Below, one piece after another: positions 7,141 through 54,868 of a stretch of DNA of 64,000 bases. The position numbers were made by a program, and so were the translations under genes. Position 1 is the first letter of the stretch. Every line of letters begins with the position of its first letter. The notes under the pieces were generated by a model. It did not search any database. It was given only the letters and a program-made list of their open reading frames with translations, and was not told the origin of the DNA. Origin of the DNA: a bacterium (lineage in GTDB: Bacteria > Patescibacteriota > Microgenomatia > UBA12405); assembly GCA_021817905.1 (NCBI GenBank), contig JAKAFM010000001.1:3985-67984 (forward strand), given 5' to 3'.

Positions 7141-7208
7141 CTCTGCATTAGCACAAAGTCCGTGAGCTTTAGCGAAACGGATTGCAGAAAGGGCGGTTCG
7201 ACTCCGCC

Positions 7209-12230: not shown

Positions 12231-12730
12231 TTCAGCTGTACTGAAGTCACGATCTTTCCAAAATCTTTCTCTAATTCAGGATCATTACTATTAGCAGTTA
12301 AAGCTACCGACACTACTTGGTCTCCAAACATTTGCCAACAAACCCGCTCCCAAACATCTTTTTTTTGATAACATCGCCAATCATCAATTGCCAAGGCTTG
12401 ATACAAATCATTTTTTAGACTTCTCATTTTTATATCTGAAAGCTCATCTAAATTTCCACTATAATCTTTAGCCATTACTACCAGCTGTTGGGACAAACCA
12501 ACCGTTCCCACTAACAATACCTTTTTTTCTTCACTGCTTAAAACAGTCAAAGAGGGTGGATACTTAAAATGAAATGTTTTCCCTTGATAATCAATCCAGG
12601 CCGTTGATTGGCTTGCCAGCGGCTCTATCTTTGGGGTAGTTACTGTTCCCACACTAGGTTGTCGCATCCACCACCAAAAAACAGCTATCAATATCGCCAC
12701 TGTTCCCGATAACAATAACCATTTTCTCAT
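12227..12730 (-). CDS. Hypothetical membrane-anchored protein
   Basis: 167 aa with N-terminal TM (LLLSGTVAILIAVFWWW). It is the last gene of the minus-strand surface-protein operon. Confidence 0.5.
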   Translation of the reverse strand: MRKWLLLSGTVAILIAVFWWWMRQPSVGTVTTPKIEPLASQSTAWIDYQGKTFHFKYPPSLTVLSSEEKKVLLVGTVGLSQQLVVMAKDYSGNLDELSDIKMRSLKNDLYQALAIDDWRCYQKKDVWERVCWQMFGDQVVSVALTANSNDPELEKDFGKIVTSVQLN

Positions 12731-13410
12731 TATTTCCCGGCAATAATCAAAATATCAGCATCGGGCTGCGTCTCGCCATCAGGCAACGTTTGCACCTTAC
12801 CATTTACTAATTGAGCCATATCACTAGCTAACCCGGCATAATTACCCGTTAAATCTACTACTACTGTCTGGCCATAATCGCTTCGAGCCGCATTGCCGTG
12901 ACCAGTTACCTGAATACCGTCAATACCGCTTATTTTCTGCTCAACAGTTTTAGCTAAATTGGCCACTGTTGTCCCGTTTAACACCACTACTCTAACTTTT
13001 GCGGCCACTCCCGTTGGTGATGGTTTAACTGGCACCGCTGATTGATCATTAATCGTCAATGGCACCATATCGATAACTTTATTAGTTGACGGTCGATACA
13101 AAATTGCCCGTCTAATCTTGGTATAAATAAGCACTTTATCACCATTTTGTGATTTTTGAAAAAACGGCTGATCCTTTAATTTATCTTTATCCACGATAGT
13201 CGCCAAAGTAGGGGATTCGTCGGTGGGCAAATCCATATACTGACTAATTTTAGTCACATAACTTAAAACCTCGGCTGCCGCCACTTTTTGTGGATTTTGA
13301 GATGCTTTTTTATATTGCCGATAAAAATAATATGCTGTTCCGCTTAAACCCAAAATCAAGAGCACAATACCTGCGCCCGCTATCCACTTAACAATTGGTT
13401 GTTTCATCAT
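12730..13410 (-). CDS. LytR_C domain (LytR cell-envelope-related attenuator C-terminal) protein
   Basis: N-terminal TM, then C-terminal VRVVVLNGTTVANLAKTV...GNAAR..YGQTVVV, a LytR_C pattern. Start chosen at MMKQPIVKW (13410) rather than the ORF-track start at 13521. Confidence 0.6.
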   Translation of the reverse strand: MMKQPIVKWIAGAGIVLLILGLSGTAYYFYRQYKKASQNPQKVAAAEVLSYVTKISQYMDLPTDESPTLATIVDKDKLKDQPFFQKSQNGDKVLIYTKIRRAILYRPSTNKVIDMVPLTINDQSAVPVKPSPTGVAAKVRVVVLNGTTVANLAKTVEQKISGIDGIQVTGHGNAARSDYGQTVVVDLTGNYAGLASDMAQLVNGKVQTLPDGETQPDADILIIAGK

Positions 13411-13427
13411 ATTCAATTTTACCGCAA

Positions 13428-16370: not shown

Positions 16371-18697
16371 CGGGCGTTATATCTCAAAATAATATCACCG
16401 GCCCGGGTCAAGGCACTCGATGTATTCTTTGCCGCCAGTTTTATTCTAATAATTGCGGTCTGCCCGGCCGCATTCCACTGTGGTGACGAACCACTGCTCA
16501 GTGTCGTACTGGTACATCCCGAACTCGACCATGCTGTTGAGGCTGTTGAACCTATTGAACAGACACTGGTCCCCGGAGTATCGGTATCATTATTCACCCG
16601 ATAAGAAATATAGTTATCACCTGTAGTCCCAAGGCCAGTCTGATAATTGAATTGCAGTGCGCACGTTGAACCCGGGCAACTTCCTGTCTGCCAGCTACTA
16701 AAATCACCCGGCAAAGTTACTCTGACCAACACCGAATAATCCTGAAGGGCCGCATTAGTCGATGACCACTGATAATAATTTTGCCACCCGCTGGTGCCAG
16801 TATTCAAATTATTATCCGAAGTCAAAGATCCATCATTAGATGTCGAACCGTCTTTCGACAATGATGCCCCCGAATACTCTGGCGAAAGTACTATTTGAGA
16901 AGTATAGGTTGACGAACCAGCGCAGGCCCCCCAAGTACCGTTGGCATAACACCGAAAAGCATTCGAGGCAGTACTATAATACATCGCTCCATTTGTTCCC
17001 GCCGGATCACTACTACCATTATCCATCACAAACAAAATTGGTGAAGTTTTTCCCACTCCAGTCCCGATAATCACCTCGCCGGTTGGCCCGACATCAAAAA
17101 TAACATTGCCGGCATTAAAGGTTCGTAACGTTAAATCTGAACTTCCATAGATCGGTCCCGATTCGACAGACAAAGGTGCTCCCGATCGTATAGTTGACGA
17201 AGTTGGGTTGGTAAAATACATATCATAAGCAATACCTACATCACCAGCCGAAGTTAAGTTAAACGGATTATTTACCGTTGATTGCTGTGGCGATACCGAA
17301 GCGATATCACTCCCATTATTATTAAGATCCAAAATATTACCGTTACCATCACTTTCGACATACATTCCCCCAGCATTTGGATCGGTATTACCATTATAAA
17401 TACCTGCTACATAACCTGTACTTCCAGTACCATAAATATCAAATTGGTGACCCAGGCCGGAAGTTCCTATCCCCACATTACCACCACTACCAACATAAAA
17501 TACTTGGGTATTTCCTAATCCCAATAATGAAAAATAAAAAGATGAAACCCCTACATTGGTATTTTGGGTTAAAGTCCCACCTAAACCCACTGCCCCCGAT
17601 ATTAATTGCAAACCATTGGTAGCAGTCGCTGACCCCCCTGGTGGCAACGTTCCTTGAACCAAAACACCACTGCTATTGATATACAATACCGTGTTTCCCA
17701 CCCCTACCGGAATTCCTGTCATCGTTACCGACCCTCCAATTGAAAGGTTGGTAGAAATATTAACATTACCAACAACATCCAATTTATACCCCGGATTTGA
17801 TGTGCCAATTCCCACCCAACCACTAGTCCCAATAAACAACGCCTGACTATTACCCAACCCCAAAAAATTAACCGTAAATGATGAAGTACCAATTGAGGTA
17901 TTTTGTACCAAGGTTCCACCCAAACCAACCGAACCAGCAATCAAAGATAACCCATTTGTTGTTGATGCCGAGCCACTGGGAGGTAAAGTTCCTTGAGTAA
18001 TACTTCCATTACTGCTGATATATAAAACAGTCGATCCTGTTCCCAAGGGAATATTAGTCAAACTTAATGACCCGCCAATTGCCAAGTTACCCGTAACCCC
18101 TACGCCTCCCGTGATTACTAAGCCCGCAAAAAGAGGCGAATTAGTCGTCTGTAAACTCTGATTCAAACTAACCCCAACTCCCGAAGTCACAAAAGAATCT
18201 CCAAAACTTATCGTTTTGCCATTAGGAATGGTTAAGGTTCCGGTCGTATTAGTTACCGTCAATCCCGACACTTTCAAAGCATTCATCGCATAGGGCACAG
18301 CCGTAAATTGTAACCGAGGGCTCATATCACCATCACCATTAAAATTTACCGATAAATAAAGGCTATCAGTATTAAAATCAATTGACGATGGAAAAGTAGT
18401 GTAAGTTCCTAAAGCCACATTAAAAGTCCCGCTGGTTACCGGCACCTGTGTTGTCCCCGAATTCCAAGTTTCTGTCCATAACGATGACCCTGCCGACAAA
18501 GCATTCCAAATTGTAAAAGTAAAATTATAACTTCCATCCGCCACATTGGTTCCATCAGTTGACCCTATCCCTTTATTAACCACCTTACCCTGAAAATTAA
18601 TTTTTTGATTTATTCCTGTCGCTGCCAACACAGAGCCTGACCCTGCCAATCCCGCCACTAAAATCACCACAAACACAAGCACTTTTAAGTACTTCAT
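16367..18697 (-). CDS. Secreted protein with tandem ~100-aa repeats and a tail-fibre-like GIGT(S/T)xP motif
   Basis: 776 aa. Signal peptide. Two tandem repeats (G[SN]TVLYI[SN]S.G...QGTLPP.GSA..TNGL.L..G.VGLGGTL.QNT..G.SSF....LGLGN.Q......G.VGIGTS). VGIGTSNPGYKLDV resembles phage tail-fibre and chaperone-of-endosialidase-neighbour repeats. The start overlaps the stop of the upstream gene (ATGA). Confidence 0.65.
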   Translation of the reverse strand: MKYLKVLVFVVILVAGLAGSGSVLAATGINQKINFQGKVVNKGIGSTDGTNVADGSYNFTFTIWNALSAGSSLWTETWNSGTTQVPVTSGTFNVALGTYTTFPSSIDFNTDSLYLSVNFNGDGDMSPRLQFTAVPYAMNALKVSGLTVTNTTGTLTIPNGKTISFGDSFVTSGVGVSLNQSLQTTNSPLFAGLVITGGVGVTGNLAIGGSLSLTNIPLGTGSTVLYISSNGSITQGTLPPSGSASTTNGLSLIAGSVGLGGTLVQNTSIGTSSFTVNFLGLGNSQALFIGTSGWVGIGTSNPGYKLDVVGNVNISTNLSIGGSVTMTGIPVGVGNTVLYINSSGVLVQGTLPPGGSATATNGLQLISGAVGLGGTLTQNTNVGVSSFYFSLLGLGNTQVFYVGSGGNVGIGTSGLGHQFDIYGTGSTGYVAGIYNGNTDPNAGGMYVESDGNGNILDLNNNGSDIASVSPQQSTVNNPFNLTSAGDVGIAYDMYFTNPTSSTIRSGAPLSVESGPIYGSSDLTLRTFNAGNVIFDVGPTGEVIIGTGVGKTSPILFVMDNGSSDPAGTNGAMYYSTASNAFRCYANGTWGACAGSSTYTSQIVLSPEYSGASLSKDGSTSNDGSLTSDNNLNTGTSGWQNYYQWSSTNAALQDYSVLVRVTLPGDFSSWQTGSCPGSTCALQFNYQTGLGTTGDNYISYRVNNDTDTPGTSVCSIGSTASTAWSSSGCTSTTLSSGSSPQWNAAGQTAIIRIKLAAKNTSSALTRAGDIILRYNAR

Positions 18698-18825
18698 TAT
18701 ATATTTTTCGATAGGATAGGTAAATATATCCTAAAAAACCAGGAAAAATTAAATCCTAGTATCTAATTGTAGTGGTCAGGGGGAAAGGGGTAAAGACATC
18801 ACTATAGATCAAATTATCATTGCAT

Positions 18826-19770
18826 TTAATTCGGTAACTTAGGGTTTTTTTTAATAAATTTTTTAGAAATATAAATAGTACTCCCAAATAATCCAATTAT
18901 GAAGGCCAACAACAACCAAAACAAAGGAGCTCCGGCAGAAAAATAATGATCTTTCACTAATGTCGTATCAGCCACCCCATCGTAACGATAATTTACATTT
19001 ATTGTGTAGTTACCCGGAAAAAAGAGACGAGACAGAGGATAAAGTTGAGTCCGATAAACTCTAAAACTTTCCGGCAAAATAATTGCGGAATCGCTATTAA
19101 TTAACCCCTTGCCCACCACGCGCCCCAAAACATCAACCACAGTAACTGTCCCTCGAGGAACTAAATGAACATTACCACTATTTTGAAAACGTAATAAAAC
19201 AGTCGACGGCAGCCGAAACCAAGCAGCATCGTGTTCAATTTTTCTTAAATCAAGTTGTTTAATCTCTGCGCCACCCTGTTTGTCAACAAAAAATAAACTG
19301 GCATATGCTTGATTTACATTCACAACACTCCCAGGCTTAACATCACTTACCTGACTAAAAAGCACCGCTCCATAATGTCCGCCTGAAGTCAATGAATCTT
19401 TATTAAGAACCGTCACTTTAACTTTCTCCTCACTTCCCGCCGCCACCTCGAGCCTATCCTTTTCCAATTGCAACCATGACGCCAGCGAATATTTATATTT
19501 CTGCATTTCCTGGCCATTCACTCCCAAAAATTGAACCCCTCCAGAATCATTTAGGCTCCCAAAATCAACCACTGATAATTGAAAAGTTTGACTAAAAGTA
19601 TTATGGTTCGCTACCGTCAAAATTTCACTGTGAGAATTCTCTGCTGGTAACAATGTTACCGACACAAATGGAGGAGATATTGAAAATCCACCACTGACAG
19701 CAAAACACCTATCCGGCCTCAATAAAATAATCATCACTAACAATAAAAATTGCTTTAAAAACGTATGCAT
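18826..19770 (-). CDS. Secreted protein with a C-terminal TM anchor and basic tail (DUF916/DUF3324-like architecture)
   Basis: 314 aa. N-terminal signal peptide. C-terminal LFWLLLAFIIGLFGSTIYI followed by KKFIKKNPK. Paralogous to 19771-20814. Confidence 0.55.
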   Translation of the reverse strand: MHTFLKQFLLLVMIILLRPDRCFAVSGGFSISPPFVSVTLLPAENSHSEILTVANHNTFSQTFQLSVVDFGSLNDSGGVQFLGVNGQEMQKYKYSLASWLQLEKDRLEVAAGSEEKVKVTVLNKDSLTSGGHYGAVLFSQVSDVKPGSVVNVNQAYASLFFVDKQGGAEIKQLDLRKIEHDAAWFRLPSTVLLRFQNSGNVHLVPRGTVTVVDVLGRVVGKGLINSDSAIILPESFRVYRTQLYPLSRLFFPGNYTINVNYRYDGVADTTLVKDHYFSAGAPLFWLLLAFIIGLFGSTIYISKKFIKKNPKLPN

Positions 19771-20814
19771 CTACTTTCTTTTAATCATCCGATATAACAA
19801 ATAGGTCATTTGGCCCACTCCAAATAATAACAAAATAACTACCACTCCAACCCCTATAAGTATTCTCCACGGGACCACCCAAAAACTTAAACTCGCCTCA
19901 ATGGGAACATCCCGCTTACCATCATCATAAGCTAACAACATTAATGCCGTATATTTTCCAAATCGTAATTTCTTAATTTGCGAAAAATCCCAATTAAGTT
20001 GTTGGATGGGATTTCCTTTGCGATCAGTCTCTACCACCTTATTGTCAATTTTATCCGTATAGACAGGAAAACCATCACTCCATGCACTTGTGAATATCCT
20101 CGATGAATTTGGTAAAACATTTCCCTTAAGATCATTAATATCCAAAATAGCCACATCTTTTTTGTCCCCTTGGCTAATAAAAATGTTTCCTTTTGGAGCC
20201 ACATGAACATTTCCCTGGTTAAGCAACTTAATAGTAAAATTTACCGGTAAAAATTCAAATACTTTCTTCGGTACCGAAAATTCAGTAACCTCAATTTTTC
20301 GCACTGCATTTGGAACCCTTACTTCCAACAAGACCAAAGACGCCACTGCCCCCAAAATTTTAGTTGACCGCTCTCCTGCAACTGTCGGATCATTAAATCG
20401 GGAAAAAGTAACTGCGTAATAATAGCCAAATGCTGCGTTTGGAGGCACAGAAATATTCATCGTAATCGTTTTCCACTCATTCGCCACCATCGTAAAGTCG
20501 TTATCTGAAAAATGTACCCAATCAAAGTAATCATCCCCCGGGGCTCGATCTAATAATCTTGGGTTACCCTCATCTCCATAGGCCGAAAATTTCATTAAAC
20601 TAACATGAATTTTTTCTGGTAACAAACCGGCATTCTTAATTTTCAACTGCGCCGAAACCGTAGACCCTGGTTCAGTCACTAAATTAATGGGAAGAGGGGA
20701 CACCACCAAATTTAAACCGCCCACTGTTTGCGCCAATACCAGATTACTTTTTCCTCCAATAAGGAATAAAATTCCTAAAATCAAACCACTCCAAAACCTA
20801 AATCTAATTTTCAT
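19771..20814 (-). CDS. Secreted protein with a C-terminal TM anchor and basic tail (paralogue of 18826-19770)
   Basis: 347 aa. Signal peptide. C-terminal ILIGVGVVVILLLFGVG followed by YRMIKRK. Shares the central motif P(K/R)G...ILP.SSR with the neighbouring gene. Confidence 0.55.
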   Translation of the reverse strand: MKIRFRFWSGLILGILFLIGGKSNLVLAQTVGGLNLVVSPLPINLVTEPGSTVSAQLKIKNAGLLPEKIHVSLMKFSAYGDEGNPRLLDRAPGDDYFDWVHFSDNDFTMVANEWKTITMNISVPPNAAFGYYYAVTFSRFNDPTVAGERSTKILGAVASLVLLEVRVPNAVRKIEVTEFSVPKKVFEFLPVNFTIKLLNQGNVHVAPKGNIFISQGDKKDVAILDINDLKGNVLPNSSRIFTSAWSDGFPVYTDKIDNKVVETDRKGNPIQQLNWDFSQIKKLRFGKYTALMLLAYDDGKRDVPIEASLSFWVVPWRILIGVGVVVILLLFGVGQMTYLLYRMIKRK

Positions 20815-20822
20815 TCCAAAAC

Positions 20823-21833
20823 TTAAAAATTACCGGCACCAACTATGGTCCAGGTATCTGTATAGTCACTGCCAGCAGCCTTGGTTGCAATCATCGCCAC
20901 ATGAGCCTTAAGCCAAACAGTATCATTGTTAGTTTTTCCTGTTCGGAACACAAATGGTTGCAAAGAAGTACTAAATGCTCCTCCGGATGTAGTCCCGTTC
21001 CCAGCATAAGATGTCGCTGCCGTCAGCGACCCAGACCCTGTGCCCGCAGTTACTCCAACATCCAAAATATAGCAATCAGATCCGGAGGTACAGGTTACCG
21101 TCGATCCGCCCACTACTCCTGTTGTCCCGATACTTTCCCCAGTCGTCGCCGACGATAATGCAGCATTAGCGCTTTTTATCCACCCAGTCCACCCCTTGGC
21201 CGCATTAGTCGACACCGAAACTCCAACTCCGATCGTTGAGACGACAGATCCGGAACTTAAATTACCTGTAAAGGCATCCGTTGTTCCCGTTATTGAAAAA
21301 TTAAAAGTTGAAGGTACGTTTGCCGTAATTACCACTTGATCGCTTGACAAATATTGAACCGCCACCGTTGTTTGATCAATCAAAGCATCACCCGAAGTTG
21401 TTGTTTTCACGATATCAAACGCTGAACCTGGTGAAGCCGGTGTTGATATACCAATATTTATATTAAAGCCATAAGTTTGGCCAACTGACAACGCCGTTAC
21501 TCCCGTTATATCAACTTCCGAAGTTCCTGTCCGGGCTGCTACCAAAGTCCCCGGCAAAGTCGAGACCCCCGTATCCAAATTAGTAACCGACACACTAACT
21601 CCAGCCCCAACCACGGCTGATCCAAAAATGAGCTTTACTTTAGCAACTGTTGCCCCCGTCACCGGAATAAAGGTAACGTAAACATTCGACGGAGTGTTTG
21701 CCTGCATCCGATCATAACGAACCGTTGCCCGGGTAAGCTGTGCCGCCAACACCGACTGACTCGACATTGAAAAAAGGATTGCCGCCAACACCAACACCGA
21801 CAACAAAGAAACGACCGATCTTAATATTTTCAT
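20823..21833 (-). CDS. Secreted T/S/G-rich surface protein with a conserved C-terminal tail (possibly WxL-like)
   Basis: 336 aa. Signal peptide. The C-terminus ...SDYTDTWTIVGAGNF is homologous to the C-terminus of 21887-22939. Confidence 0.5.
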   Translation of the reverse strand: MKILRSVVSLLSVLVLAAILFSMSSQSVLAAQLTRATVRYDRMQANTPSNVYVTFIPVTGATVAKVKLIFGSAVVGAGVSVSVTNLDTGVSTLPGTLVAARTGTSEVDITGVTALSVGQTYGFNINIGISTPASPGSAFDIVKTTTSGDALIDQTTVAVQYLSSDQVVITANVPSTFNFSITGTTDAFTGNLSSGSVVSTIGVGVSVSTNAAKGWTGWIKSANAALSSATTGESIGTTGVVGGSTVTCTSGSDCYILDVGVTAGTGSGSLTAATSYAGNGTTSGGAFSTSLQPFVFRTGKTNNDTVWLKAHVAMIATKAAGSDYTDTWTIVGAGNF

Positions 21834-21886
21834 GGTTATGATTTAAATATGTCTTGTTTACGATAATTTGTCAAGCTGATCATTAT

Positions 21887-22939
21887 TTAAAAATTGGCGC
21901 TGGCAATTACCGTCATCGATTCACTATAGTCACTAGCCTCGGGGGTACTCGTTGACGACTTCGCTTTAACTAAAAAATGAGCTCTGCCCGAAGTTACTGG
22001 AGTAGTCGCAGTAAAAATCTGATTTACTAAGGTGTTTACCGAACCAATAACATTTCCACTCCCATTATAGGGAGACAATATTAAAAATTGCCCAGCAGTT
22101 TGTGTCGCTCCTACCCCTTGTACTCCATAACCTTCCGCAATCCCACCACTCGATAAATCCCCATTTACCGTTGCAATTGTATAACCTGCAGTCACACTTT
22201 TTAAACCGCCATTTTGGCCGTAAATAAACACCCCACCTCCAGACGCCGCATTCGTATCCAAAGATACCCAAACATAAACCGGGCTATTAACCACATTACT
22301 TGGATAAAGATCCCCTAAACTAATCGCATAAGGTGGCAAAGTGTGGGTATCGGTAGCAGAAACATCGATTTCAAATGTTAGCGTCGGCGCTACCGTGGCT
22401 CCCGTCGCCACTGGTCCCCAATTGGTTTCACTATATTTTCCTTGCCAAGCCTTTGCTTTAAAGCTATAAGTAGTTGAACCTAGCAAACCAGAGACAACGC
22501 TGCCCGTTGATCCTCCCCAGGCATTATAATTTTGATAATCAGTAAATGCCAATGAAGACCCAATAGTACCGTCAGATTTTATATATTGTGTCGTTACAAA
22601 ATTATCACTACTAATGGCAATTGCATACAATGCATCACCCGGATTACCTTGAGTATCGACCACAAAATGCAATTTATTATAATAGTTGCCCGGATTATCA
22701 ACCGTAATCTTGGGAACATTGGCCAACTCTGCAAATACCAATCCAGGACCAATCCCATAACTGGAACCAACAATCGGATTCCCTCCGACTTCACCAGCCA
22801 CCCCGTTTATAGAATAATTACTTGATCCCACCTGACCTCCTCCCGCACTCCCAAGACTGAAACCTTCGAGTTTGTAATTAGTACTCGCCGGCAATACAAA
22901 AAAGAGAAATAACCACCAATAGTTTCGATAGTTCTTCAT
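21887..22939 (-). CDS. Secreted surface protein, paralogue of 20823-21833 (possibly WxL-like)
   Basis: 350 aa. Signal peptide. C-terminus ...SDYSESMTVIASANF aligns with SDYTDTWTIVGAGNF. Confidence 0.5.
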   Translation of the reverse strand: MKNYRNYWWLFLFFVLPASTNYKLEGFSLGSAGGGQVGSSNYSINGVAGEVGGNPIVGSSYGIGPGLVFAELANVPKITVDNPGNYYNKLHFVVDTQGNPGDALYAIAISSDNFVTTQYIKSDGTIGSSLAFTDYQNYNAWGGSTGSVVSGLLGSTTYSFKAKAWQGKYSETNWGPVATGATVAPTLTFEIDVSATDTHTLPPYAISLGDLYPSNVVNSPVYVWVSLDTNAASGGGVFIYGQNGGLKSVTAGYTIATVNGDLSSGGIAEGYGVQGVGATQTAGQFLILSPYNGSGNVIGSVNTLVNQIFTATTPVTSGRAHFLVKAKSSTSTPEASDYSESMTVIASANF

Positions 22940-25584
22940 AATTTAAAACGAATCCATAAATACCAAAAAACAAAAGAAATCAAAAGAGGAACAGCTGCAA
23001 TCGTTGTGCTTACCACCGAAAGCATTACCCCAAACAAAATAGTAAAAAACAAAAACGCCCAAGCTCCAAATCTCCCAAAATTGATATGTCCACTATCATA
23101 GGAGCCGTCAAAATCACTTTTTACTAACCTAAAATGTAACGCCGCTCTCAATAAACTTTCGCGCTTAAAATCCATAAACGGGGACGGATCATACCCTCGT
23201 GCCGTCACTGAAATTCGAACCTGATCTAACCTAGCTGGCACTTTCATAGAAAAATTTCCCAACAATCCAGTATAACTTCTTTCAAGAACCTGATTTTTAT
23301 TGCCATCGACCAAAAAAACACCTGCCCCAGAAATCGGGTAACCACTCAAATCGTTTATCACCACCCCATTAATAGTATTAACCTCCTTTACTCTTATCAA
23401 CAGACGATACAAATATAAAGGTAACAACCACCAAGCAATATGGTTGATTAGTGACCATGTTAACATTCCCAAAAAAAGTAACATTCCTGTCATAAGAACC
23501 CAAAGTAATTGGATAAATCGACCAGAATGAAAAAGTTCAATTGCTGAATTCAGAACAAAGGTATAACTGTCACTTATGGTTGTCGCATAAAAACCCACCA
23601 CCGCGCCTATAGTTATTGGCAATCGTTCCAAACTAACCTGGGGATAACCATTATGAGGAGATACTACAAATTCCATGGTTTTACTTTTATAACCCATCGC
23701 CGTTACCACCATTTTATATTGACCTTCTATTAAGATAGTATTAACCGTTCCATTACTTTCCGAATAAGTAGGATTAGTTAATAAACCCGTTCCACGCCAT
23801 AATTGATAAATCCGTGCTGGCGTAAAATAATAAAAAGTCACCTCCGCCCGCTCGATTCCTTTTCCGTTTTGGTCAACAACCTTAACGGGCAAAATGACCG
23901 TTAATTCCCCAACCTTTTGCTCAACAATATTCCCATAAAAATCATAAATTCGCAAATACATTTCATAAACACCGGGAAGAGGAGGAGTTTTTAAGTACGC
24001 CTGATAACCATTACTCCCAGAATTAATAAGATCAGCCACTACCGAATTGGGATCATTCCCAGCTGCACTCACAATTCCCAAAACATGCTTATTCCGTAAC
24101 CAAACTTGCGCCAGTTTAATGATATACGTCGGCGGAAGATTAAATTGGACCATATATGGCTGCGCTACCGGCAAAATTATCTGTGCCAAAGGTTTAGTTT
24201 GACCAGTATTGCGGTTGTCATACAATATTTGATCTGAACTCACCACTGTTGCCAATAATTGGCTGAATACCGACGGTAAAAGGGGAGTTGATGGCGTTAT
24301 AAAGGTGAACACATCAGAAGTCGTGGTATCGGCAGTTACCGTAAAGAAATAGGCAGTTGATGGCAATAATCCTTCAATTTTTATTTTATTTTCCGTGCCA
24401 ATATCTAGTACTATTAATGACTTACTTAACAATGTCGGCGACAACCCATACCGTATTTGCAATTTCTGCGGTACAGCCGACACCTCCACCCCTACCGTCG
24501 CCGCAGTTGCATCCAGACCGGAAATCACCACATTGGTAATAGTTACTGGCACTGGCACCGGCACTGGCGTCGCTGTTGGCACCCCGGTTAATTCAACCGT
24601 CGGCACAATCGTTGCAATTGGTGTTGGAGTTGTCATGGATGCATACTGATAACTCTCAGTAATCTGATTACTCGAAACTGTCACTACTTTCGATGCATTC
24701 AACTCTCCCGAAACAGTAAAATGGACAGTTGATGACCCAGCATAGTTACTATTAGTCTTTAAACTAAAGCTAACCTTTTGGTCGGTCGTTTGGGCTGGAA
24801 AAGAAGTTATGGTCCAGGTAATCGTCCGATTAACTAAATCGATTACCGGATGTGTCCCATTATAAGCATCGCTGGCGCTGTTCACCACGTAATCAGCCAC
24901 ATCAACCGTCAGTCCTCCGCCACCCTCAACCGAACCCCGTCCCCAGGTTGCCGTCAGTACCAAGGGATACGTCGGACTATGCAAATTGGCTCCATAGGTT
25001 AAAGTGTAGCCAATTTGCTGATTTTGACTCAAAACTCCAACACTGTTGTCCGTCAATCCAATTTGAAAATCTGACGCCAAAGCCGACACTTTTCCAGTAA
25101 CTACCACAGTATCTTTTGCCGCAATCGGAATACCCACGTATTGTTGACCATCAATAGTCGACCCAACCAAAGTCATCACCTGCCATTGATATATTGAGCT
25201 ATCACCAGCGGACGGATTCAGCCCAACTCCACCAGTCACATAAAAACCATAAGTAACTCCAGCCGTTAAATCACCACTCGAAAAAGTTATCTGTTGACCG
25301 TCAACACCACTAAAACCTATTCCCGGCCAAGCAGTCACTCCGGATGGTAATTGTGAGGTACTAATAGTCACCCCGGAATTCACACTCCAGGCGCTATTTA
25401 CCACCATTCTGAATCCTGTTTCCGTCACGTTGGATAATGTCGAAACTTCAACCAAAACTGGTAAAGGATTTTCACCGCTTGCCATTCGGCTTAACCGAAT
25501 TGTTGATGATTCCAACCCAGCCGCTGCCACCTGTTTTGTCGACAGAAAAAATACCATCACGATCAAGAACCACTTTTTCATCAT
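22936..25584 (-). CDS. Large membrane-anchored adhesin-like protein with CarbopepD_reg/transthyretin-like domains
   Basis: 882 aa. Signal peptide. PVPVPVPV linker and an FN3-like region. Two CarboxypepD_reg-like beta-sandwich segments (VKVVDQNGKGIERAEVTFYY..GQYKMVVTAMGYKSKT; GVFLVDGNKNQVLERSYTGLLGNFSMKV..). Several C-terminal TM helices. Confidence 0.65.
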   Translation of the reverse strand: MMKKWFLIVMVFFLSTKQVAAAGLESSTIRLSRMASGENPLPVLVEVSTLSNVTETGFRMVVNSAWSVNSGVTISTSQLPSGVTAWPGIGFSGVDGQQITFSSGDLTAGVTYGFYVTGGVGLNPSAGDSSIYQWQVMTLVGSTIDGQQYVGIPIAAKDTVVVTGKVSALASDFQIGLTDNSVGVLSQNQQIGYTLTYGANLHSPTYPLVLTATWGRGSVEGGGGLTVDVADYVVNSASDAYNGTHPVIDLVNRTITWTITSFPAQTTDQKVSFSLKTNSNYAGSSTVHFTVSGELNASKVVTVSSNQITESYQYASMTTPTPIATIVPTVELTGVPTATPVPVPVPVTITNVVISGLDATAATVGVEVSAVPQKLQIRYGLSPTLLSKSLIVLDIGTENKIKIEGLLPSTAYFFTVTADTTTSDVFTFITPSTPLLPSVFSQLLATVVSSDQILYDNRNTGQTKPLAQIILPVAQPYMVQFNLPPTYIIKLAQVWLRNKHVLGIVSAAGNDPNSVVADLINSGSNGYQAYLKTPPLPGVYEMYLRIYDFYGNIVEQKVGELTVILPVKVVDQNGKGIERAEVTFYYFTPARIYQLWRGTGLLTNPTYSESNGTVNTILIEGQYKMVVTAMGYKSKTMEFVVSPHNGYPQVSLERLPITIGAVVGFYATTISDSYTFVLNSAIELFHSGRFIQLLWVLMTGMLLFLGMLTWSLINHIAWWLLPLYLYRLLIRVKEVNTINGVVINDLSGYPISGAGVFLVDGNKNQVLERSYTGLLGNFSMKVPARLDQVRISVTARGYDPSPFMDFKRESLLRAALHFRLVKSDFDGSYDSGHINFGRFGAWAFLFFTILFGVMLSVVSTTIAAVPLLISFVFWYLWIRFKL

Positions 25585-27060: not shown

Positions 27061-28113
27061 ATGAATTTTCTTAAATCAAACATCATAAAAATCATTATTT
27101 TTATCACCATCATTGGGTTAGTAGTTTTTGTCATTAAAAGTAGATCTGCACCGGCAGCATCATCACTTTATAACCCAAAAACAGACCAAATCGTAACTCC
27201 AACCTACCAACCTATTGCCGATACGGTCAGTTTGGCTGGTTCTATTAATGCCAGCAATGTCGCCATACTTCAATTTCAAACCAGTGGTCAACTTGCCTGG
27301 GTCGGCGTCAAGATAGGGGATCACGTCAGAAGAGGTCAAGCCATTGCCATGCTTGATAAACGCCAGCTACAATCTCAATTTCAAACTGCCATGAATGCTT
27401 ATCTTACCAACCGATCAACCTTTGAAGACACTCAAGACCAATACAAGGCCACTAAGGACAACTATTTAGTCACCGATCCTATCAAACGAATTCTCGACCG
27501 CACCCAATGGTCACTTGATAATGCTGTTATCGGCGTCCAGGCTGCCGACTTAGCTGTCAAATACGCAACTCTTATCAGTCCCATCGATGGTATCGTTGTT
27601 GACATTGATCAACCTAATGCCGGCGTTAACATTACTCCGCTTACTGCCAACTATACTATTATCGATCCTACCAGTATCTACTTTAAGTCTGAGATTGATC
27701 AGGAAACTATTCCTAAAATAAATGTTGGCCAACAGGCTACTATTCAACTTGATAGTTTCCCCAACAGTACGTTTAACTCGACCATCACCTATATTGCCTT
27801 TACGCCAGTAGTCAATCAAACTTCAACCGTTTACGAAGTCAGATTTAAACTTCCGGTTGACAACAGTACGCTATTATATCGTCAAGGTATGACCGGAGAC
27901 GTTTCCATTACCCTCAGTCAATCACCTCGCACCTTAGTTATTCCCATAGATGCAATCAATGATGACGGTCTTGGTAATAAATATGTCTATACCAAACAAG
28001 CCAATAATACTCTTACCAAAGTGGCTGTTACTACCGGCATTGAATCTGATACTTCGATTGAAGTTACCAAAGGCTTAACCGAAAATGACCAAGTTATCAT
28101 CAAAAAAAGATAA
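27061..28113 (+). CDS. HlyD/MacA-like periplasmic adaptor (membrane-fusion) subunit of an ABC exporter
   Basis: N-terminal TM, coiled-coil region and beta-barrel/lipoyl-like segments. Sits immediately upstream of a MacB-type ATPase and permease. Confidence 0.7.
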   Translation: MNFLKSNIIKIIIFITIIGLVVFVIKSRSAPAASSLYNPKTDQIVTPTYQPIADTVSLAGSINASNVAILQFQTSGQLAWVGVKIGDHVRRGQAIAMLDKRQLQSQFQTAMNAYLTNRSTFEDTQDQYKATKDNYLVTDPIKRILDRTQWSLDNAVIGVQAADLAVKYATLISPIDGIVVDIDQPNAGVNITPLTANYTIIDPTSIYFKSEIDQETIPKINVGQQATIQLDSFPNSTFNSTITYIAFTPVVNQTSTVYEVRFKLPVDNSTLLYRQGMTGDVSITLSQSPRTLVIPIDAINDDGLGNKYVYTKQANNTLTKVAVTTGIESDTSIEVTKGLTENDQVIIKKR

Positions 28114-28816
28114 TCCCAAAGTTATTCTAGAACTTCGAGATGTTGTTAAAACCTATACCACTGGTAATACTAGTTTTAACGCTCTAAACAAAGTCAACCT
28201 TTCTATAAACCAGGGAGAATTTGTCTCCATTACCGGTCCTTCAGGCTCAGGAAAGTCAACCCTAATGCACATTGTTGGATTACTTGATATCCCAACCTCC
28301 GGCGAAGTCCTGCTCAATAATCTCGATATCGCTCACTTTGACGAAAAAAAATTGGCCCAAATTAGAAACGTCACCCTCGGGTTCGTCTTTCAGCAATTTA
28401 ACCTCCTCCCCAAAACCTCAGCCCTCGAAAACGTCATGTTACCACTCCTATATTCCGACGTCCCCCAACATCTCCGCCGGGATTTAGGTGTTGAAATGTT
28501 AACCAAAGTCGGATTGGCCGACAAATTAGTCAATACTCCCTCACAACTCTCCGGTGGTCAACAACAACGGGTAGCTATTGCCCGAGCCCTTATCAACAAT
28601 CCCAAAATTATCCTAGCTGATGAACCGACAGGAAATCTCGACTCTAAATCAGGTAGCGATATTATGGCTTTTTTCCATCAACTTAACCAAAAGGAAGGTC
28701 GGACTATTGTTTTTGTGACTCATGATCGTGATCTTGCCAACGAAGCCGACCGTATCATTATTATCAAAGATGGTCAAATACAAATTGAACAACACCCCCG
28801 CCATGTTGAAACCTAG
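28085..28816 (+). CDS. ABC transporter ATP-binding protein (MacB/LolD type)
   Basis: Walker A GPSGSGKST, ABC signature LSGGQQQRVAIARAL, Walker B ILADEPTGNLD. Confidence 0.9.
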   Translation: MTKLSSKKDNPKVILELRDVVKTYTTGNTSFNALNKVNLSINQGEFVSITGPSGSGKSTLMHIVGLLDIPTSGEVLLNNLDIAHFDEKKLAQIRNVTLGFVFQQFNLLPKTSALENVMLPLLYSDVPQHLRRDLGVEMLTKVGLADKLVNTPSQLSGGQQQRVAIARALINNPKIILADEPTGNLDSKSGSDIMAFFHQLNQKEGRTIVFVTHDRDLANEADRIIIIKDGQIQIEQHPRHVET

Positions 28817-30026
28817 CCTCGGCGAACTGGTTCGTTCCAGTTTTCATTCTATTTTTAAAAATAAAAGCCGTACTTTCCTGACTTCCTTAGGTATTATTAT
28901 TGGTGTCACCTCAGTAATTCTCTTAACTTCAATTGGTAATGGTCTTCAGAAATATGTTAACGACCAGTTCGATAGTCTTGGCTCAAATACTGTTTTTATC
29001 GTCCCAGGGCAAATATTTAACGACAAAGGTGGTTTTAATAATAGCTCTCAGAACCGCTTGGTCACCACTCGATTTTCGCTTAACGATGTCGCCACCTTGA
29101 GAAAGGGATTAAGAAGATCTCAAATATTACCCCTTTCTCAGGCAGTAGTTGATGTTAAATCAGGACCAATTCTTAAAAAAGCCAAAAGTCTTGTCGGCGT
29201 CACTAGTGATTATGGAGCTGCCAATAACGCCCTTCCCTCCAGTGGTAATGGTCGTTGGTTTACCAAAGATGAAGAAGACAAAAAAAGTAATGTTGTTGTT
29301 CTTGGCTACCAAATAGCTCTCGATCTTTTTCCGACGACTAGTCCGCTAAACAAAAAAATTGTTATTAAAGGTAAAAATCTTAAAGTAATCGGAATCCTCG
29401 ACAAAAAGGGGAGTACCTTTGGCGGGCCAAGCCTTGATGATTTTATCTACACTCCCATTGGTCTAGTATTCGACATCAATGGCAACCAGGATATTCAAAG
29501 TATGTATGTCAAAGCTCCCAATAAAGACTTGGTCCCCACTACTAAGGATGAAATTAGTAAATTATTACTAAAGAAATATGATAAAGACGCCTTCTCTGTT
29601 TTTGATAGCAGTCAATTATTAAGTAGCATTAATGCCATTATCGGCACTTTAACCATCGCCCTCTCGGGTATTGCCGCCATATCGCTCGTAGTTGGTGGTA
29701 TCGGTATAATGAACATTATGTTGGTTACCGTTACCGAACGAACCAGAGAAATTGGCTTACGCAAAGCTATCGGTGCTTACCCTAATGCCATTCTATTACA
29801 ATTCTTATTCGAGGCTATATTTTTATCATGTTTTGGTGGATTAATCGGTATTATGCTTGGTTCGCTGGGTGCATTTGCCATTAATAAAGTTTTTCCGGCT
29901 ATCGTCACCCCCGGCTCTGTCCTGTTGGCCTTTGGTGTTTCCTCAGCCGTCGGTATTATTTTTGGTGTTGCCCCCGCCCGCAAAGCATCTCAGCTTTCAC
30001 CAATTGAAGCTCTCCGCTACGAATAG
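28803..30026 (+). CDS. ABC transporter permease with FtsX/MacB-like domain
   Basis: N-terminal TM, large extracytoplasmic domain, then three C-terminal TMs of FtsX type. Start moved to the ATG at 28803, overlapping the end of the ATPase gene. Confidence 0.8.
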   Translation: MLKPSLGELVRSSFHSIFKNKSRTFLTSLGIIIGVTSVILLTSIGNGLQKYVNDQFDSLGSNTVFIVPGQIFNDKGGFNNSSQNRLVTTRFSLNDVATLRKGLRRSQILPLSQAVVDVKSGPILKKAKSLVGVTSDYGAANNALPSSGNGRWFTKDEEDKKSNVVVLGYQIALDLFPTTSPLNKKIVIKGKNLKVIGILDKKGSTFGGPSLDDFIYTPIGLVFDINGNQDIQSMYVKAPNKDLVPTTKDEISKLLLKKYDKDAFSVFDSSQLLSSINAIIGTLTIALSGIAAISLVVGGIGIMNIMLVTVTERTREIGLRKAIGAYPNAILLQFLFEAIFLSCFGGLIGIMLGSLGAFAINKVFPAIVTPGSVLLAFGVSSAVGIIFGVAPARKASQLSPIEALRYE

Positions 30027-37658: not shown

Positions 37659-38642
37659 CTATTTATTTCCACTATGAAATTTATCGTGTACTTCGCGTAA
37701 GTGAGCATCTGTAACGTGGGTATAGACCTGTGTCGTAATTATATTCTTATGACCAAGTAATTCCTGGATCGACCGCAGATCAGCACCAGCTAACAAGAGA
37801 TCCGTCGCCATTGAATGACGTAGGGTATGAGGTGTAGCATCAACCGGCAATCTTGCCTTACGCACATAGTGCTTCATTAAACGCTGAATTGAACGTACCG
37901 ATAGCCGGACGTCTTTATCAGTCATAGTTATAGAGACTTTGCCACCAAAACGAATAAACAATGGTTTAAACTTATCCGTCCGAGCCCGAAGGTAACGTCC
38001 AACATAAATAGCTGCCTGTTTTGAAATAAACACTACCCGTGATTTGCCACCCTTACCAACAACCCCAAACTCCCGTGTTTCCAAATTAATCCGATCACGG
38101 TCTAAACCTGCCAACTCCGATACCCGCAAACCCGTTGAAAACAATAACTCTAAAATAGCCTTATCTCGAAGTCCCTCTTTGGTCGATAGTAATGGTTGGT
38201 TAAGCAATAACTGCATTTGCTCTGAATTTAAAAATTTTAACGAATGGTCCTTATTTTTGGGAACGTCTAATTTTTCAGGAGCTAGAACCACATAATCCTT
38301 TTTAATCAACCATTTAAGAAACGAACGCAGAGCAATAATATAATAGCCTTGGGTAACAATCTTCAATTGACCAACTGTCCCATCAAGATGACTCAAATAA
38401 ACTCTAAATTTACGCACCCAATCACCATCAATATCAGCCACCACCGGCGGTCTCGTAAGATTACTTTTTAAATAATCATAAAATACGGTCAAGTAATGAC
38501 GATAGTTGCGGATTGTCAACCGTGAACAATTTCTCTCTATCTCCAGATGTTCCAAAAACTGTTCTATCAAAACTGACAAATTTACCTCCATAGATACCAG
38601 TATAACCCAAATCGTGCGTCTAATGGGCTCACACGAAGTCAA
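37659..38642 (-). CDS. Tyrosine site-specific recombinase (XerC/XerD/phage-integrase family)
   Basis: The C-terminal catalytic region HTLRHSMATDLLLAGADLRSIQELLGHKNIITTQVYTHV carries the R..H..R..Y signature. An N-terminal SAM-like core-binding domain is present. It stands alone between gyrA and a membrane-protein gene. Confidence 0.85.
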   Translation of the reverse strand: MTSCEPIRRTIWVILVSMEVNLSVLIEQFLEHLEIERNCSRLTIRNYRHYLTVFYDYLKSNLTRPPVVADIDGDWVRKFRVYLSHLDGTVGQLKIVTQGYYIIALRSFLKWLIKKDYVVLAPEKLDVPKNKDHSLKFLNSEQMQLLLNQPLLSTKEGLRDKAILELLFSTGLRVSELAGLDRDRINLETREFGVVGKGGKSRVVFISKQAAIYVGRYLRARTDKFKPLFIRFGGKVSITMTDKDVRLSVRSIQRLMKHYVRKARLPVDATPHTLRHSMATDLLLAGADLRSIQELLGHKNIITTQVYTHVTDAHLREVHDKFHSGNK

Positions 38643-51718: not shown

Positions 51719-52963
51719 ATGAATCAATCAAAACCACAAACTCTCAAAGGTTTTCGTGACTTTTTACCCGACGATATGCGGGTACGCAACTACGTCAAAA
51801 AAATCTGTATCGAAGCCTTTGAACAGTTCGGTTTCGAACCTCTCGAAACCCCAACGCTTGAATATGCTTCTACCTTGATGGGTAAATATGGGAAGGAAGC
51901 CGATAAATTAGTCTATAAATTCAAAGATAATGGCGATCGTGATGTTGGCCTCCGCTATGACTTGACCGTCCCCACCGCCAAAGTTTTAAGCATCTACCAA
52001 CAACAGCTTCCCCTTCCTTTTAAGCGCTATCAAATTCAATCGGTTTGGCGTGCCGACAAACCTCAAAAAGGCCGCTATCGGGAATTCACCCAATGCGACA
52101 TCGACACTTTTGGTCCCCCCTCCCCTTTAAACGATGCCGAAATGGTCGCGGTTATCTATACTATTTTACAAAAATTAAATTTCAAAAAGTACCAAATTAA
52201 AATAAACAGTCGTCAAGTCCTTTTTGAAATAATTACCCGCTCAGGCCTTGAAGAACAAAAATTTACAGTCCTCCAGTCAGTCGATAAATTAAGCAAAATC
52301 GGATATGATGGAGTACAAAAAGAACTCATTTCCAAGGATATTAGCCAGGAACAGATAGAGTTACTGTTTAAATACGTCAAAGAGGCTCAACCAGACGATT
52401 ATCTAAAATCAGTCTTTTCTAAGCTGTCGGAATTTGGTGTCCCTCAAAGTGCCTATAGTTTTGACCCTACCATAGTCCGAGGACTTGACTACTACACCGG
52501 CCCAATTTTTGAAACCTATGTTGAAGAGCCCAAGATCGGATCAATTACCGGTGGTGGTCGCTATGATAATCTAGTCTCCAGCCTTGGCGGCCCCAATATT
52601 TCCGCCGTTGGCACTACGCTTGGCTTTGACCGTATTGTAGACTGTATTATCGAGCTCAAATTGCTCCCTCAACTACAAACCTCTACCACCAAAGTCATGG
52701 TTGCCAATTTTGGCCTCGACACTGAGAAAGAAGCGATAGGTCTAGCCACCACACTTCGTGCCAACAAAATCGCCACCATGCTCTACCCTACCTTTGACAA
52801 ATTAGGCAAACAATTTGCCTATGCCGACGCCAAAAAAATTCCCTTTGTCGCTGCTATTGGAAGTGATGAAGCAAAAGCCGGAAAAATTATGCTCAAAAAC
52901 ATGGCTAAAAAAGAGCAAACTTTAGTTAGTCAAGAAGACTTATTATCAATTCTTATGATATAA
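51719..52963 (+). CDS. hisS: Histidine--tRNA ligase
   Basis: N-terminal KGFRDFLPDDMRVRN signature of HisRS. Class II motifs. C-terminal anticodon-binding domain. 414 aa. Confidence 0.95.
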   Translation: MNQSKPQTLKGFRDFLPDDMRVRNYVKKICIEAFEQFGFEPLETPTLEYASTLMGKYGKEADKLVYKFKDNGDRDVGLRYDLTVPTAKVLSIYQQQLPLPFKRYQIQSVWRADKPQKGRYREFTQCDIDTFGPPSPLNDAEMVAVIYTILQKLNFKKYQIKINSRQVLFEIITRSGLEEQKFTVLQSVDKLSKIGYDGVQKELISKDISQEQIELLFKYVKEAQPDDYLKSVFSKLSEFGVPQSAYSFDPTIVRGLDYYTGPIFETYVEEPKIGSITGGGRYDNLVSSLGGPNISAVGTTLGFDRIVDCIIELKLLPQLQTSTTKVMVANFGLDTEKEAIGLATTLRANKIATMLYPTFDKLGKQFAYADAKKIPFVAAIGSDEAKAGKIMLKNMAKKEQTLVSQEDLLSILMI

Positions 52964-52971
52964 TAAAGCCC

Positions 52972-53238
52972 ATGAAAGCCTCAATCCATCCAAAATATAA
53001 CGATCAATGCCAGGTTAGCTGTGCCTGCGGCAATAAATTCGTCACCGGCTCTACGCTTGACAAAATCGAAGTCGAAGTTTGTTCTCATTGCCACCCTTTC
53101 TTCACCGGTCAGCAAAAATTCGTGGATATTAAAGGTAAAATTGATAAATTTAAAGAAAAAGTTGCCAAAGGTAAAGCTCATGCTATTGTGGCTGCTGATC
53201 GCCAAGCCAAGAAGGCTGCCGCTAAAAAAGAAAATTAG
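52972..53238 (+). CDS. rpmE: 50S ribosomal protein L31
   Basis: MKASIHPKY... with a CxxC...CxxC zinc ribbon (CACGNKF...CSHCHPFFTG). Confidence 0.9.
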   Translation: MKASIHPKYNDQCQVSCACGNKFVTGSTLDKIEVEVCSHCHPFFTGQQKFVDIKGKIDKFKEKVAKGKAHAIVAADRQAKKAAAKKEN

Positions 53239-53301
53239 ATAAATTTGCAGCATACGACTATCATTAGAAATTTGAAATTAGAAATTTTGAATTATTGAGG
53301 T

Positions 53302-54036
53302 ATGCCCACTACCAATTCAGACATTGCCATACTTGAATTCCGTCCAGGACCAGGAGGAGAAGAAGCCAGTATCTGGTTAAACGACCTTATGAACATGTAT
53401 GTCCGTTATGCCAACAAGGTTGGATGGAAGGTTAACCAGCTCGACGCCAATGTCGTTCAAATTAAAGGCTTTGACGCCTATAATCAACTTAAATTCGAGA
53501 CCGGTACTCACCGCGTCCAACGAATTCCGGTCACCGAAAAACATGGCCGGATACACACCTCCACTGCCGCTGTAGTTGTTCTCCCCCAAGTCAGTTCTAA
53601 TGACATAAAAATAAATCCCGATGACCTAGAAATTAGTGCTACTCGCGCTGGAGGCCACGGCGGTCAAAACGTTAACAAAGTCTCCACTGCTATCCACCTT
53701 CTTCACAAACCTACCAATATTGTTATCGATGTTCGCCAGGAACGGTCCCAGCAACAAAACCGGGAAATTGCCATGGATATATTGCGCTCAAAATTATGGG
53801 AAATTGAAGATGAAAAACGAGGGAGTCTCTTAAGCGGAGCCAGAGCGATTATTGGCCAAGCTAAACGCGCCGACAAAATTCGTACCTATAACTATGCCCG
53901 CAATCAAGTCAAAGACCACCGCTTGGAATCAATGAGTTTCAACAATCTCGACCGTATCATGCAAGGCGACCTTGACGACCTGCTTCTCAACCTCTCAATT
54001 CTCGAAGAAACCAATAATAATGTTATTAAACAATAG
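53302..54036 (+). CDS. prfA: Class I peptide chain release factor, RF1-like (PxT type) but lacking N-terminal domain 1
   Basis: PVT tripeptide in the context RVQRIPVTEKHGRIHTSTAAVVVLP, which is RF1-like. GGQ motif RAGGHGGQNVNKV. Only 244 aa: the alignment to RF1 begins near RF1 residue ~110 at FRPGPGGEEA. The upstream space is occupied by rpmE. Confidence 0.75.
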   Translation: MPTTNSDIAILEFRPGPGGEEASIWLNDLMNMYVRYANKVGWKVNQLDANVVQIKGFDAYNQLKFETGTHRVQRIPVTEKHGRIHTSTAAVVVLPQVSSNDIKINPDDLEISATRAGGHGGQNVNKVSTAIHLLHKPTNIVIDVRQERSQQQNREIAMDILRSKLWEIEDEKRGSLLSGARAIIGQAKRADKIRTYNYARNQVKDHRLESMSFNNLDRIMQGDLDDLLLNLSILEETNNNVIKQ

Positions 54037-54044
54037 TAGTCGGA

Positions 54045-54392
54045 CTATCTTCTCTCACGCTTAAGTTTAAAAGAAACATTTTCTCCAGCTACATATACTT
54101 CTGTACCTATCTTCTTTAAGACAATTTCAGTTCTTCCAGTGGGCATTACCTCAATCGAAGCAATTCCATTTCTGACTTCTGCTTGCACCTTACCTGATCC
54201 AGAATTAAAATTTAACACCTCAACTTCATAGGTACGAAATGCACTGTTAATAATTGCTCCACCTTCTCTTTCAGTTGAAGACCTTCTTTCATCAAACATA
54301 AAACTACCATCCCACCTTCTTTTCCACCCCTTAAGAACATTTAGTTCATTTGCTAAATTCGGACTCGGCATACTTATTCTCATTGGTGTCAT
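54045..54392 (-). CDS. Hypothetical protein
   Basis: 115 aa with no motif. Confidence 0.4.
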   Translation of the reverse strand: MTPMRISMPSPNLANELNVLKGWKRRWDGSFMFDERRSSTEREGGAIINSAFRTYEVEVLNFNSGSGKVQAEVRNGIASIEVMPTGRTEIVLKKIGTEVYVAGENVSFKLKRERR

Positions 54393-54433: not shown

Positions 54434-54868
54434 TTACCATCCTCTTCTTGACCTTCTTCTCCCAGATAGTTCTCTTAATTCTTCCTGCTCTTTCTTCGTT
54501 GCTTTTTGATGCGTAATACGTACTTCTAATTCAGGGATAGCAATCCCCTTATCCCTTCCGTTCATATTAACCGAAGCTGTAACGATTCCATACTCATCCA
54601 ACGTAGGTTCAATATGCTTTCTTGTCAGTAACCCACGAATAGACCATCGTCGACTTTCAAATCTAATAGCTTTGGTATCTGCAAAAACCTTCGTCTTGTC
54701 TACCGACGATGTGATTTGAGAAACCGGACTCTCCTTATCTCCAACATAAAACGAACCACTCCCCACCGATCCATCCTCTCGAACCCGAACTTGCCCGCTG
54801 CCTGGTACTGGCTTAAGTTTAGCTATAAACGTATCCCTACCAGATCCCTCAACTCTAAATGCTGTCAT
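54434..54868 (-). CDS. Hypothetical protein
   Basis: 144 aa with no motif. A weak GSG(Q/K)V similarity to the neighbouring 115-aa ORF. Confidence 0.4.
   Translation of the reverse strand: MTAFRVEGSGRDTFIAKLKPVPGSGQVRVREDGSVGSGSFYVGDKESPVSQITSSVDKTKVFADTKAIRFESRRWSIRGLLTRKHIEPTLDEYGIVTASVNMNGRDKGIAIPELEVRITHQKATKKEQEELRELSGRRRSRRGW

Follow-up and report, generated by a model that had tools for sequence, protein, structure and literature searches.

To our knowledge, every textbook bacterial class-I release factor has domain 1, an N-terminal helical domain through which it touches RF3 and the L11 stalk. Until now, only engineered deletions in E. coli had shown that this domain can be dispensed with. 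In the account of Mora et al. (2003) given in PMC1586002, E. coli RF1 deleted for domain 1 released peptide in vitro with unchanged codon specificity and worked in vivo, while it was unable to stimulate RF3, domain 1 being required to act on that factor. PrfH (RFH) likewise has no domain 1 and keeps the GGQ motif (PMC1586002); its recognition loop is its own, neither PxT nor SPF, and its gene lies directly downstream of rtcB. ArfB, ICT1 and C12orf65 are rescue factors built on the GGQ domain; they have no domains 2 and 4 for codon recognition and rely on a C-terminal tail (basic in ArfB).

We analysed a 64-kb stretch of DNA (the window) from a Candidatus Shapirobacteria bacterium, a member of the candidate phyla radiation (CPR), which encodes an RF1 made of domains 2, 3 and 4. 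This protein resembles canonical RF1 (E. coli, T. thermophilus and T. maritima) in its PxT and GGQ motifs, in domains 2–4 as recognized by sequence and predicted fold, and in an rpmE–prfA neighbourhood that is also found with full-length RF1. It is 39–40% identical to E. coli RF1 over residues 111–335 but lacks the whole of domain 1 (~105 residues) and has a ~10-residue deletion in a loop of domain 2, where E. coli has SEGEHGGYKE. The same architecture of domains 2–4 only has been engineered into RF1 and RF2 of E. coli (Mora, Zavialov, Ehrenberg and Buckingham 2003, described in PMC1586002 and PMC6514570). Those proteins, however, are laboratory constructs in an RF3-bearing organism with a full-length copy in its evolutionary history, whereas here whole lineages carry the truncation as a natural and fixed trait. 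Unlike PrfH, the window protein has a PxT motif and is encoded after rpmE, and unlike the ArfB-type factors, with which it shares the GGQ domain, it has complete domains 2 and 4.

We estimate at roughly 85% the probability that the gene is a genuine RF1 (a prfA orthologue), probably the only one in its genome, whose domain 1 was lost during the evolution of Microgenomates. The initial annotation of this DNA had suggested a naturally domain-1-less RF1, and the motifs, family score, predicted fold and orthologous rpmE–prfA slot all bear this out; what the annotation did not contain is that the whole lineage shares the trait, which is graded across Microgenomates. The literature searched contained no account of an RF1 that naturally lacks domain 1, in CPR or elsewhere; in one review on how release factors evolved, the CPR appears only in a figure legend (PMC6514570).

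Architecture of the short RF1

The prfA reading frame is intact, with 244 codons from an ATG start to a TAG stop (Table 1). The PVT motif, GGQ motif and domain 4 had already been read from the sequence, and Pfam recovered the RF-1 domain whole (positions 3–116 of 116) together with positions 100–194 only of the 194-position PCRF domain. Against the NCBIfam prfA model (TIGR00019) the protein scored 287.1 bits over model positions 112–349 of 361, and its PDB alignments began at residue 111 of the E. coli RF1 chains and residue 84 of T. maritima RF1. Based on these alignment starts, about 103–110 N-terminal residues of canonical RF1 are absent, which agrees with the initial estimate of about 105–115 and with a start at the beginning of canonical domain 2. 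Among the sequence, fold and genomic-position properties of RF1 that we compared, the four-domain architecture with an N-terminal helical domain 1 was the only one that the protein lacked.

Table 1. Positions of prfA, its motifs and its upstream neighbours in the window
Feature	Position in protein	Coordinates	Strand	Evidence or description
hisS		51719..52963	+	Pfam tRNA-synt_His and HGTP_anticodon; part of the conserved hisS-rpmE-prfA block
rpmE (bL31, 88 aa)		52972..53238	+	Pfam Ribosomal_L31, E=5e-27; conserved upstream neighbour of prfA
Spacer, 63 nt		53239..53301	+	AT-rich; no coding remnant of domain 1
prfA orthologue, 244-aa RF1		53302..54036	+	Pfam, TIGR00019, AlphaFold2 model; domains 2, 3 and 4 only
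N-terminus MPTTNSDIAILEFRP		53302..53346	+	Conserved; linker remnant and first beta-strand of domain 2; protein begins here
PVT codons	76-78	53527..53535	+	PxT tripeptide specifying UAA/UAG recognition in RF1
GGQ codons	120-122	53659..53667	+	Peptidyl-tRNA hydrolysis motif, domain 3

An AlphaFold2 model of the protein (pLDDT 81) placed residues 3–15 in a strand, the first of domain 2. With Foldseek this model matched 70S-bound T. thermophilus and E. coli RF1 (TM 0.75, E=1.7e-24), several of the matched ribosome-bound chains having only domains 2–4 modelled. The predicted fold is thus that of domains 2–4 of ribosome-bound RF1.

Because domain 1 is absent, the protein falls below the curated prfA cut-offs (287.1 versus 423.25 bits for TIGR00019; 284.8 versus 400 for NF001859), and its relatives are consequently named ‘release factor-like protein’ or ‘PCRF domain-containing protein’ by NCBI, an annotation blind spot. 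TIGR00019 presumably belongs to the single-copy marker set for bacterial phylogeny and genome completeness, in which case prfA would count as missing in genomes with a short RF1.

Separately, domain 3 of the Shapirobacteria RF1 (~53640–53800 in the window) and of a Dojkabacteria RF2 (L055) have GGQNVNKVS, HKPT and ERSQQQNREIAM in common, at positions that differ from E. coli RF1 and RF2. GGQNVNKV is not limited to CPR, as a pattern scan also matched it in RF2s with canonical SPFD...RRHTSF loops.

Family assignment

Family scores placed the window protein with RF1. The NCBIfam models gave 287 bits for prfA, 202 for prfB, 62.7 for prfH and 51.6 for ArfB, and matches to PDB chains reached 172–228 bits for RF1, at most 140 for RF2, 38–46 for PrfH and 38 for ArfB. 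The PrfH matches in the PDB covered the GGQ domain alone and the ArfB match ~35 residues.

These scores bear on the alternative raised initially, a PrfH-like paralogue. Under this explanation the protein would be a specialised PrfH- or ArfB-like factor for the rescue of ribosomes that are stalled or damaged, and the genome would have its true, full-length prfA elsewhere; PrfH also lacks domain 1 (PMC1586002), the NCBI names of the relatives go no further than those given above, and our search covered the window and its flanks, leaving the rest of the genome for a second gene. However, the protein missed the prfH equivalog (TIGR03072) by a wide distance (62.7 versus a cut-off of 166.65 bits), and the ArfB model matched residues 99–135 only (51.6 versus a cut-off of 100 bits). 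It also carries the PxT motif of RF1, and no member of the RtcB family was found among the genes called within 10 kb either side of prfA or among the window ORFs scanned.

Genomic position argues in the same direction. In Shapirobacteria, Amesbacteria, Gottesmanbacteria and Microgenomates GWA2_44_7 the gene immediately 5' of prfA is rpmE, and a 366-aa full-length RF1 of another lineage also directly follows rpmE, so that the slot of the window gene is that of prfA in its relatives, a slot occupied in other lineages by longer and by full-length RF1s. In addition, each Shapirobacteria species yielded a single RF1 locus in a genome scan, and none of the 120 nearest homologues was full length. We conclude that the window protein is an RF1 without domain 1 rather than a PrfH or ArfB, and regard a rescue paralogue as very unlikely.

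Upstream region and probable stepwise erosion of the N-terminus

The DNA upstream of prfA is filled by rpmE and the 63-bp spacer, as the initial annotation had described, and a TGA lies in frame at 53296–53298, one codon 5' of the prfA ATG, which leaves no room for a missing exon. We searched all frames of the window and the Shapirobacteria loci with a domain-1 profile of 27 sequences (25 full-length factors and two E. coli sequences) and obtained nothing better than E=4, while the Saccharibacteria RF1, used as a control, was recovered at E=5e-22. For local BLAST and alignment, the sequences of E. coli RF1 and RF2 were entered by hand; the results agree with those of the PDB search. A frameshifted upstream exon, named at the outset as a finding that would overturn the natural truncation, is ruled out by the in-frame stops, the null result of the domain-1 profile and the lack of conservation in the upstream DNA.

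The neighbouring bL31 has a Lys/Ala-rich C-terminal extension past the 65-position Pfam model. We rejected this extension as a stand-in for domain 1 because bL31 lies far from the ribosomal A site. It fits the reported enlargement of bL31 in CPR bacteria (PMC9297842).

The block hisS-rpmE-prfA-htrA-ctpB-...-S18-SSB-S6-cysS-recR-dnaX was conserved in all 12 Shapirobacteria, and a recognisably related block surrounded the RF1s of Gottesmanbacteria (235 aa), Amesbacteria (256 aa, with rearranged flanks) and Microgenomates GWA2_44_7 (317 aa). Across these and other lineages the proteins formed a graded series: the Pfam PCRF match began at model position 2 in Dojkabacteria RF2, 18 in Saccharibacteria RF1, 42–44 in GWA2_44_7 RF1, 47 in P0137, 72 in P0153, 95 in Amesbacteria RF1, 97 in P0125 and 100 in the RF1s of Gottesmanbacteria and Shapirobacteria. 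The N-terminal stubs of the sister lineages were progressively shorter, at about 70, 45, 30 and 21 residues.

Among 1.84 billion cluster representatives, searched exhaustively, the nearest RF1s were mostly full length, with a minority short or intermediate. In a profile search the 117 matches listed were as a rule 225–245 aa long; the named short ones were Gottesmanbacteria, and some of the short RF1s sat on contigs of 1.07–1.12 Mb. The ~10-residue loop deletion in domain 2 (at ~53470 in the window, between residues 59 and 60) was common to the RF1s of Shapirobacteria, Gottesmanbacteria, Amesbacteria and GWA2_44_7. Since it is present in forms that keep ~70 N-terminal residues, it seems to have preceded the full loss of domain 1.

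The simplest reading of these data is a stepwise N-terminal erosion of one orthologous gene within Microgenomates, with the truncation fixed across Shapirobacteria and Gottesmanbacteria and nearly so in Amesbacteria. Such a history speaks against a paralogue and also against a split gene, in which domain 1 would be a separate small protein, encoded elsewhere, that joins the 244-aa protein in trans. The latter draws some plausibility from the nature of domain 1, a helical module able to fold independently and flexible when in solution (PMC1586002), and from the extent of genome seen, which was ~85 kb (the window and ~10 kb at each end). Nonetheless, the domain-1 profile found no such protein in the window or the Shapirobacteria loci, and the graded stubs are a signature of erosion, not of a clean split; we consider a domain 1 supplied in trans highly improbable.

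Conservation of the short form

The short protein recurs with the same boundaries. The identical 244-aa protein was present on at least 15 contigs, and the places shown, which had the same neighbours, were NCBI assembly GCA_027347555.1, one ENA assembly and two Logan runs (four samples). The best 120 matches among 5.8 billion proteins were all 227–257 aa long and 63–100% identical to the window RF1, their named members being Candidatus Shapirobacteria, and hundreds of protein clusters had its boundaries. Orthologues in related genomes were equally short: the start MPTINPNIAILEF was common to all 12 Shapirobacteria species-representative genomes, in which ATG or GTG was followed by P-T-I-N-P-N-I-A-I-L-E-F and in-frame stops lay 0–25 codons upstream. 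The DNA 5' of the start was AT-rich and unrelated between species, and conservation began exactly at the start codon.

Among 42 relatives the mean column identity was 72%, and P76, T78, G120, G121, Q122 and other functional or decoding residues were invariant, which indicates purifying selection on the short protein; P-x-T was found in 120 of 120 relatives. The short RF1 of Shapirobacteria is neither a miscalled start nor a pseudogene. Metagenome-assembled genomes often contain errors and an SD-like GAGGT stands directly before, and unusually near, the prfA ATG, but the recurrence of the protein across samples, species and clusters, the onset of conservation at the start codon and the purifying selection make the chance of an artefact or decaying gene (wrong start, frameshift, misassembly or pseudogene) negligible.

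Five of the loci (L006, L008, L009, L011 and L015) belonged to Shapirobacteria by RF1 identity (67–74%) and synteny, and came from records titled ‘uncultured Gammaproteobacteria bacterium’. These appear to be mislabelled MAG records.

A variable residue in the RIHTS motif

The His of the RF1 RIHTS motif, which we take to be the residue that stacks on the stop codon, is His85 in the window protein (53554–53556). It was replaced by Gln in 62 of 120 Shapirobacteria RF1 clusters (P0001–P0120) and in 3 of 150 general RF1 representatives, and was retained in all 117 Gottesmanbacteria-type RF1s. The equivalent residue of RF2 was Gln in each of 120 Dojkabacteria RF2s (LRQTSF; P0276–P0395). The occurrence of Gln in about half of the Shapirobacteria relatives hints that details of decoding may differ.

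Stop codon usage and the other release factors

UAG is read by RF1 only. Among 54 genes in the window, 29 ended in TAA, 18 in TAG and 7 in TGA, and at 157 orthologous gene ends from the 12 species the counts were 86, 44 (28%) and 27 (17%), with the three codons replacing one another at the same ends. RF1 activity is required where TAG closes 28–33% of genes, and much of termination falls to the short protein. The TGA stops likewise lead us to expect an RF2 somewhere in the genome.

No second release factor homologue was found in the window or in the Shapirobacteria loci, and no RF2 or RF3 in the 10 kb beyond each window end, which held a type IV pilus cluster at the left and, at the right, ybeY, yqeY and cohesin/dockerin genes. 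A Dojkabacteria RF2 used as query returned full-length Dojkabacteria RF2s only and no Shapirobacteria RF2; the 120 Dojkabacteria clusters among the matches listed were nearly all 355–388 aa long and kept domain 1. A scan of metagenome DNA with the pattern SPF...GGQNVNKV, which sampled only RF2s with a 46-residue spacing from SPF to GGQ, yielded at least about 22 CPR-like RF2s, all with domain 1. They included proteins from a Microgenomates group bacterium (367 aa), Pacebacteria (366 aa) and WWE3 (335 aa); two, both full length, come from named Microgenomates lineages, and none was tied to Shapirobacteria by neighbouring genes. From these sequences, loss of domain 1 appears specific to RF1, in a comparison that takes its RF2s from other lineages rather than from one genome.

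In CPR genomes prfB was seen in a prfB-x-ftsE-ftsX(-M23 peptidase) cluster (L080, L101, L190 and L191), which in two cases directly followed a macA/macB-like ABC exporter 46–55% identical to that of the window. The window exporter (27061–30026) is followed by unrelated small ORFs and no prfB cluster; the prfB slot after macB, as found in another Microgenomates genome, is not conserved in the window.

Termination without domain 1

With the decoding and catalytic parts complete in sequence and model, the short RF1 would be expected to recognize UAA and UAG and to hydrolyse peptidyl-tRNA. Judging from its motifs and fold, it would bind the ribosomal A site at these codons through the intact domain 2/4 decoding module, with its PxT loop, and, as in any RF1, the GGQ loop of domain 3 would release the peptide. 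Lacking domain 1, the factor would be unable to touch the L11 stalk region or RF3 in the usual way and would therefore have to bind and leave without these contacts, its dissociation being spontaneous or driven by recycling factors. The host cell presumably lacks RF3. As domain 1 is needed for action on RF3 while truncated E. coli RF1 works, termination independent of RF3 is likely.

The L11 contact matters in E. coli, where RF1 is inactive on ribosomes without L11 (reviewer remark, PMC1586002), and its loss in the short RF1 therefore needs explaining. Microgenomates ribosomes are reported to be reduced, with no bL9, an altered uL1 and loss of 23S helix 78 (PMC9297842); the same paper makes no mention of uL11 in its main text, nor of release factors, and the link between the loss of domain 1 and reduced ribosomes is only circumstantial.

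A broader proposal, which we offer tentatively and hold to be on the unlikely side, is that termination in Microgenomates has been rewired asymmetrically, with an RF1 without domain 1, an RF2 with it and no RF3 or substitute partner. If true, domain 1 of RF1 would be dispensable in nature, and termination at UAA and UAG in a large part of the bacterial tree would follow a simpler, RF3-free cycle. The decoding chemistry may be altered too, given the change from the stop-codon-stacking His to Gln in half of the Shapirobacteria RF1s and the Gln of all examined Dojkabacteria RF2s.

What is new is that the domain-1-less architecture occurs naturally and is fixed throughout lineages; the factor itself and the chemistry it performs are already familiar. 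Since the laboratory deletions predicted that such a protein could work, a natural short RF1 is only mildly surprising, evolution having done the same experiment. With intermediates kept in sister lineages, it offers a natural system for asking what domain 1 does and how class-I factors are recycled without RF3.

Other features of the window

Immediately 3' of prfA, the opposite strand carries two small genes, at 54045–54392 (−; 115 aa) and 54434–54868 (−; 144 aa). Neither has a Pfam match. Independent assemblies have gene calls for both, with a length for the first of 115, 108 or 112 aa according to the assembly. Eight ORFs of 167–980 aa occupy 12227–25584 (−); seven have no Pfam match and one has a below-cut-off match to CarbopepD_reg_2. 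This run adjoins a gene for a 1682-aa protein with four LamG-like repeats (7182–12230, +). The type IV pilus cluster, a large one just past the left end of the window, comprises two T2SSE genes, T2SSF, a prepilin peptidase, ~10 pilin-like genes and pilM. The window also encodes a 377-aa Fic/DOC-domain protein (2555–3688, +) and a 327-aa XerC/D-like tyrosine recombinase (37659–38642, −).
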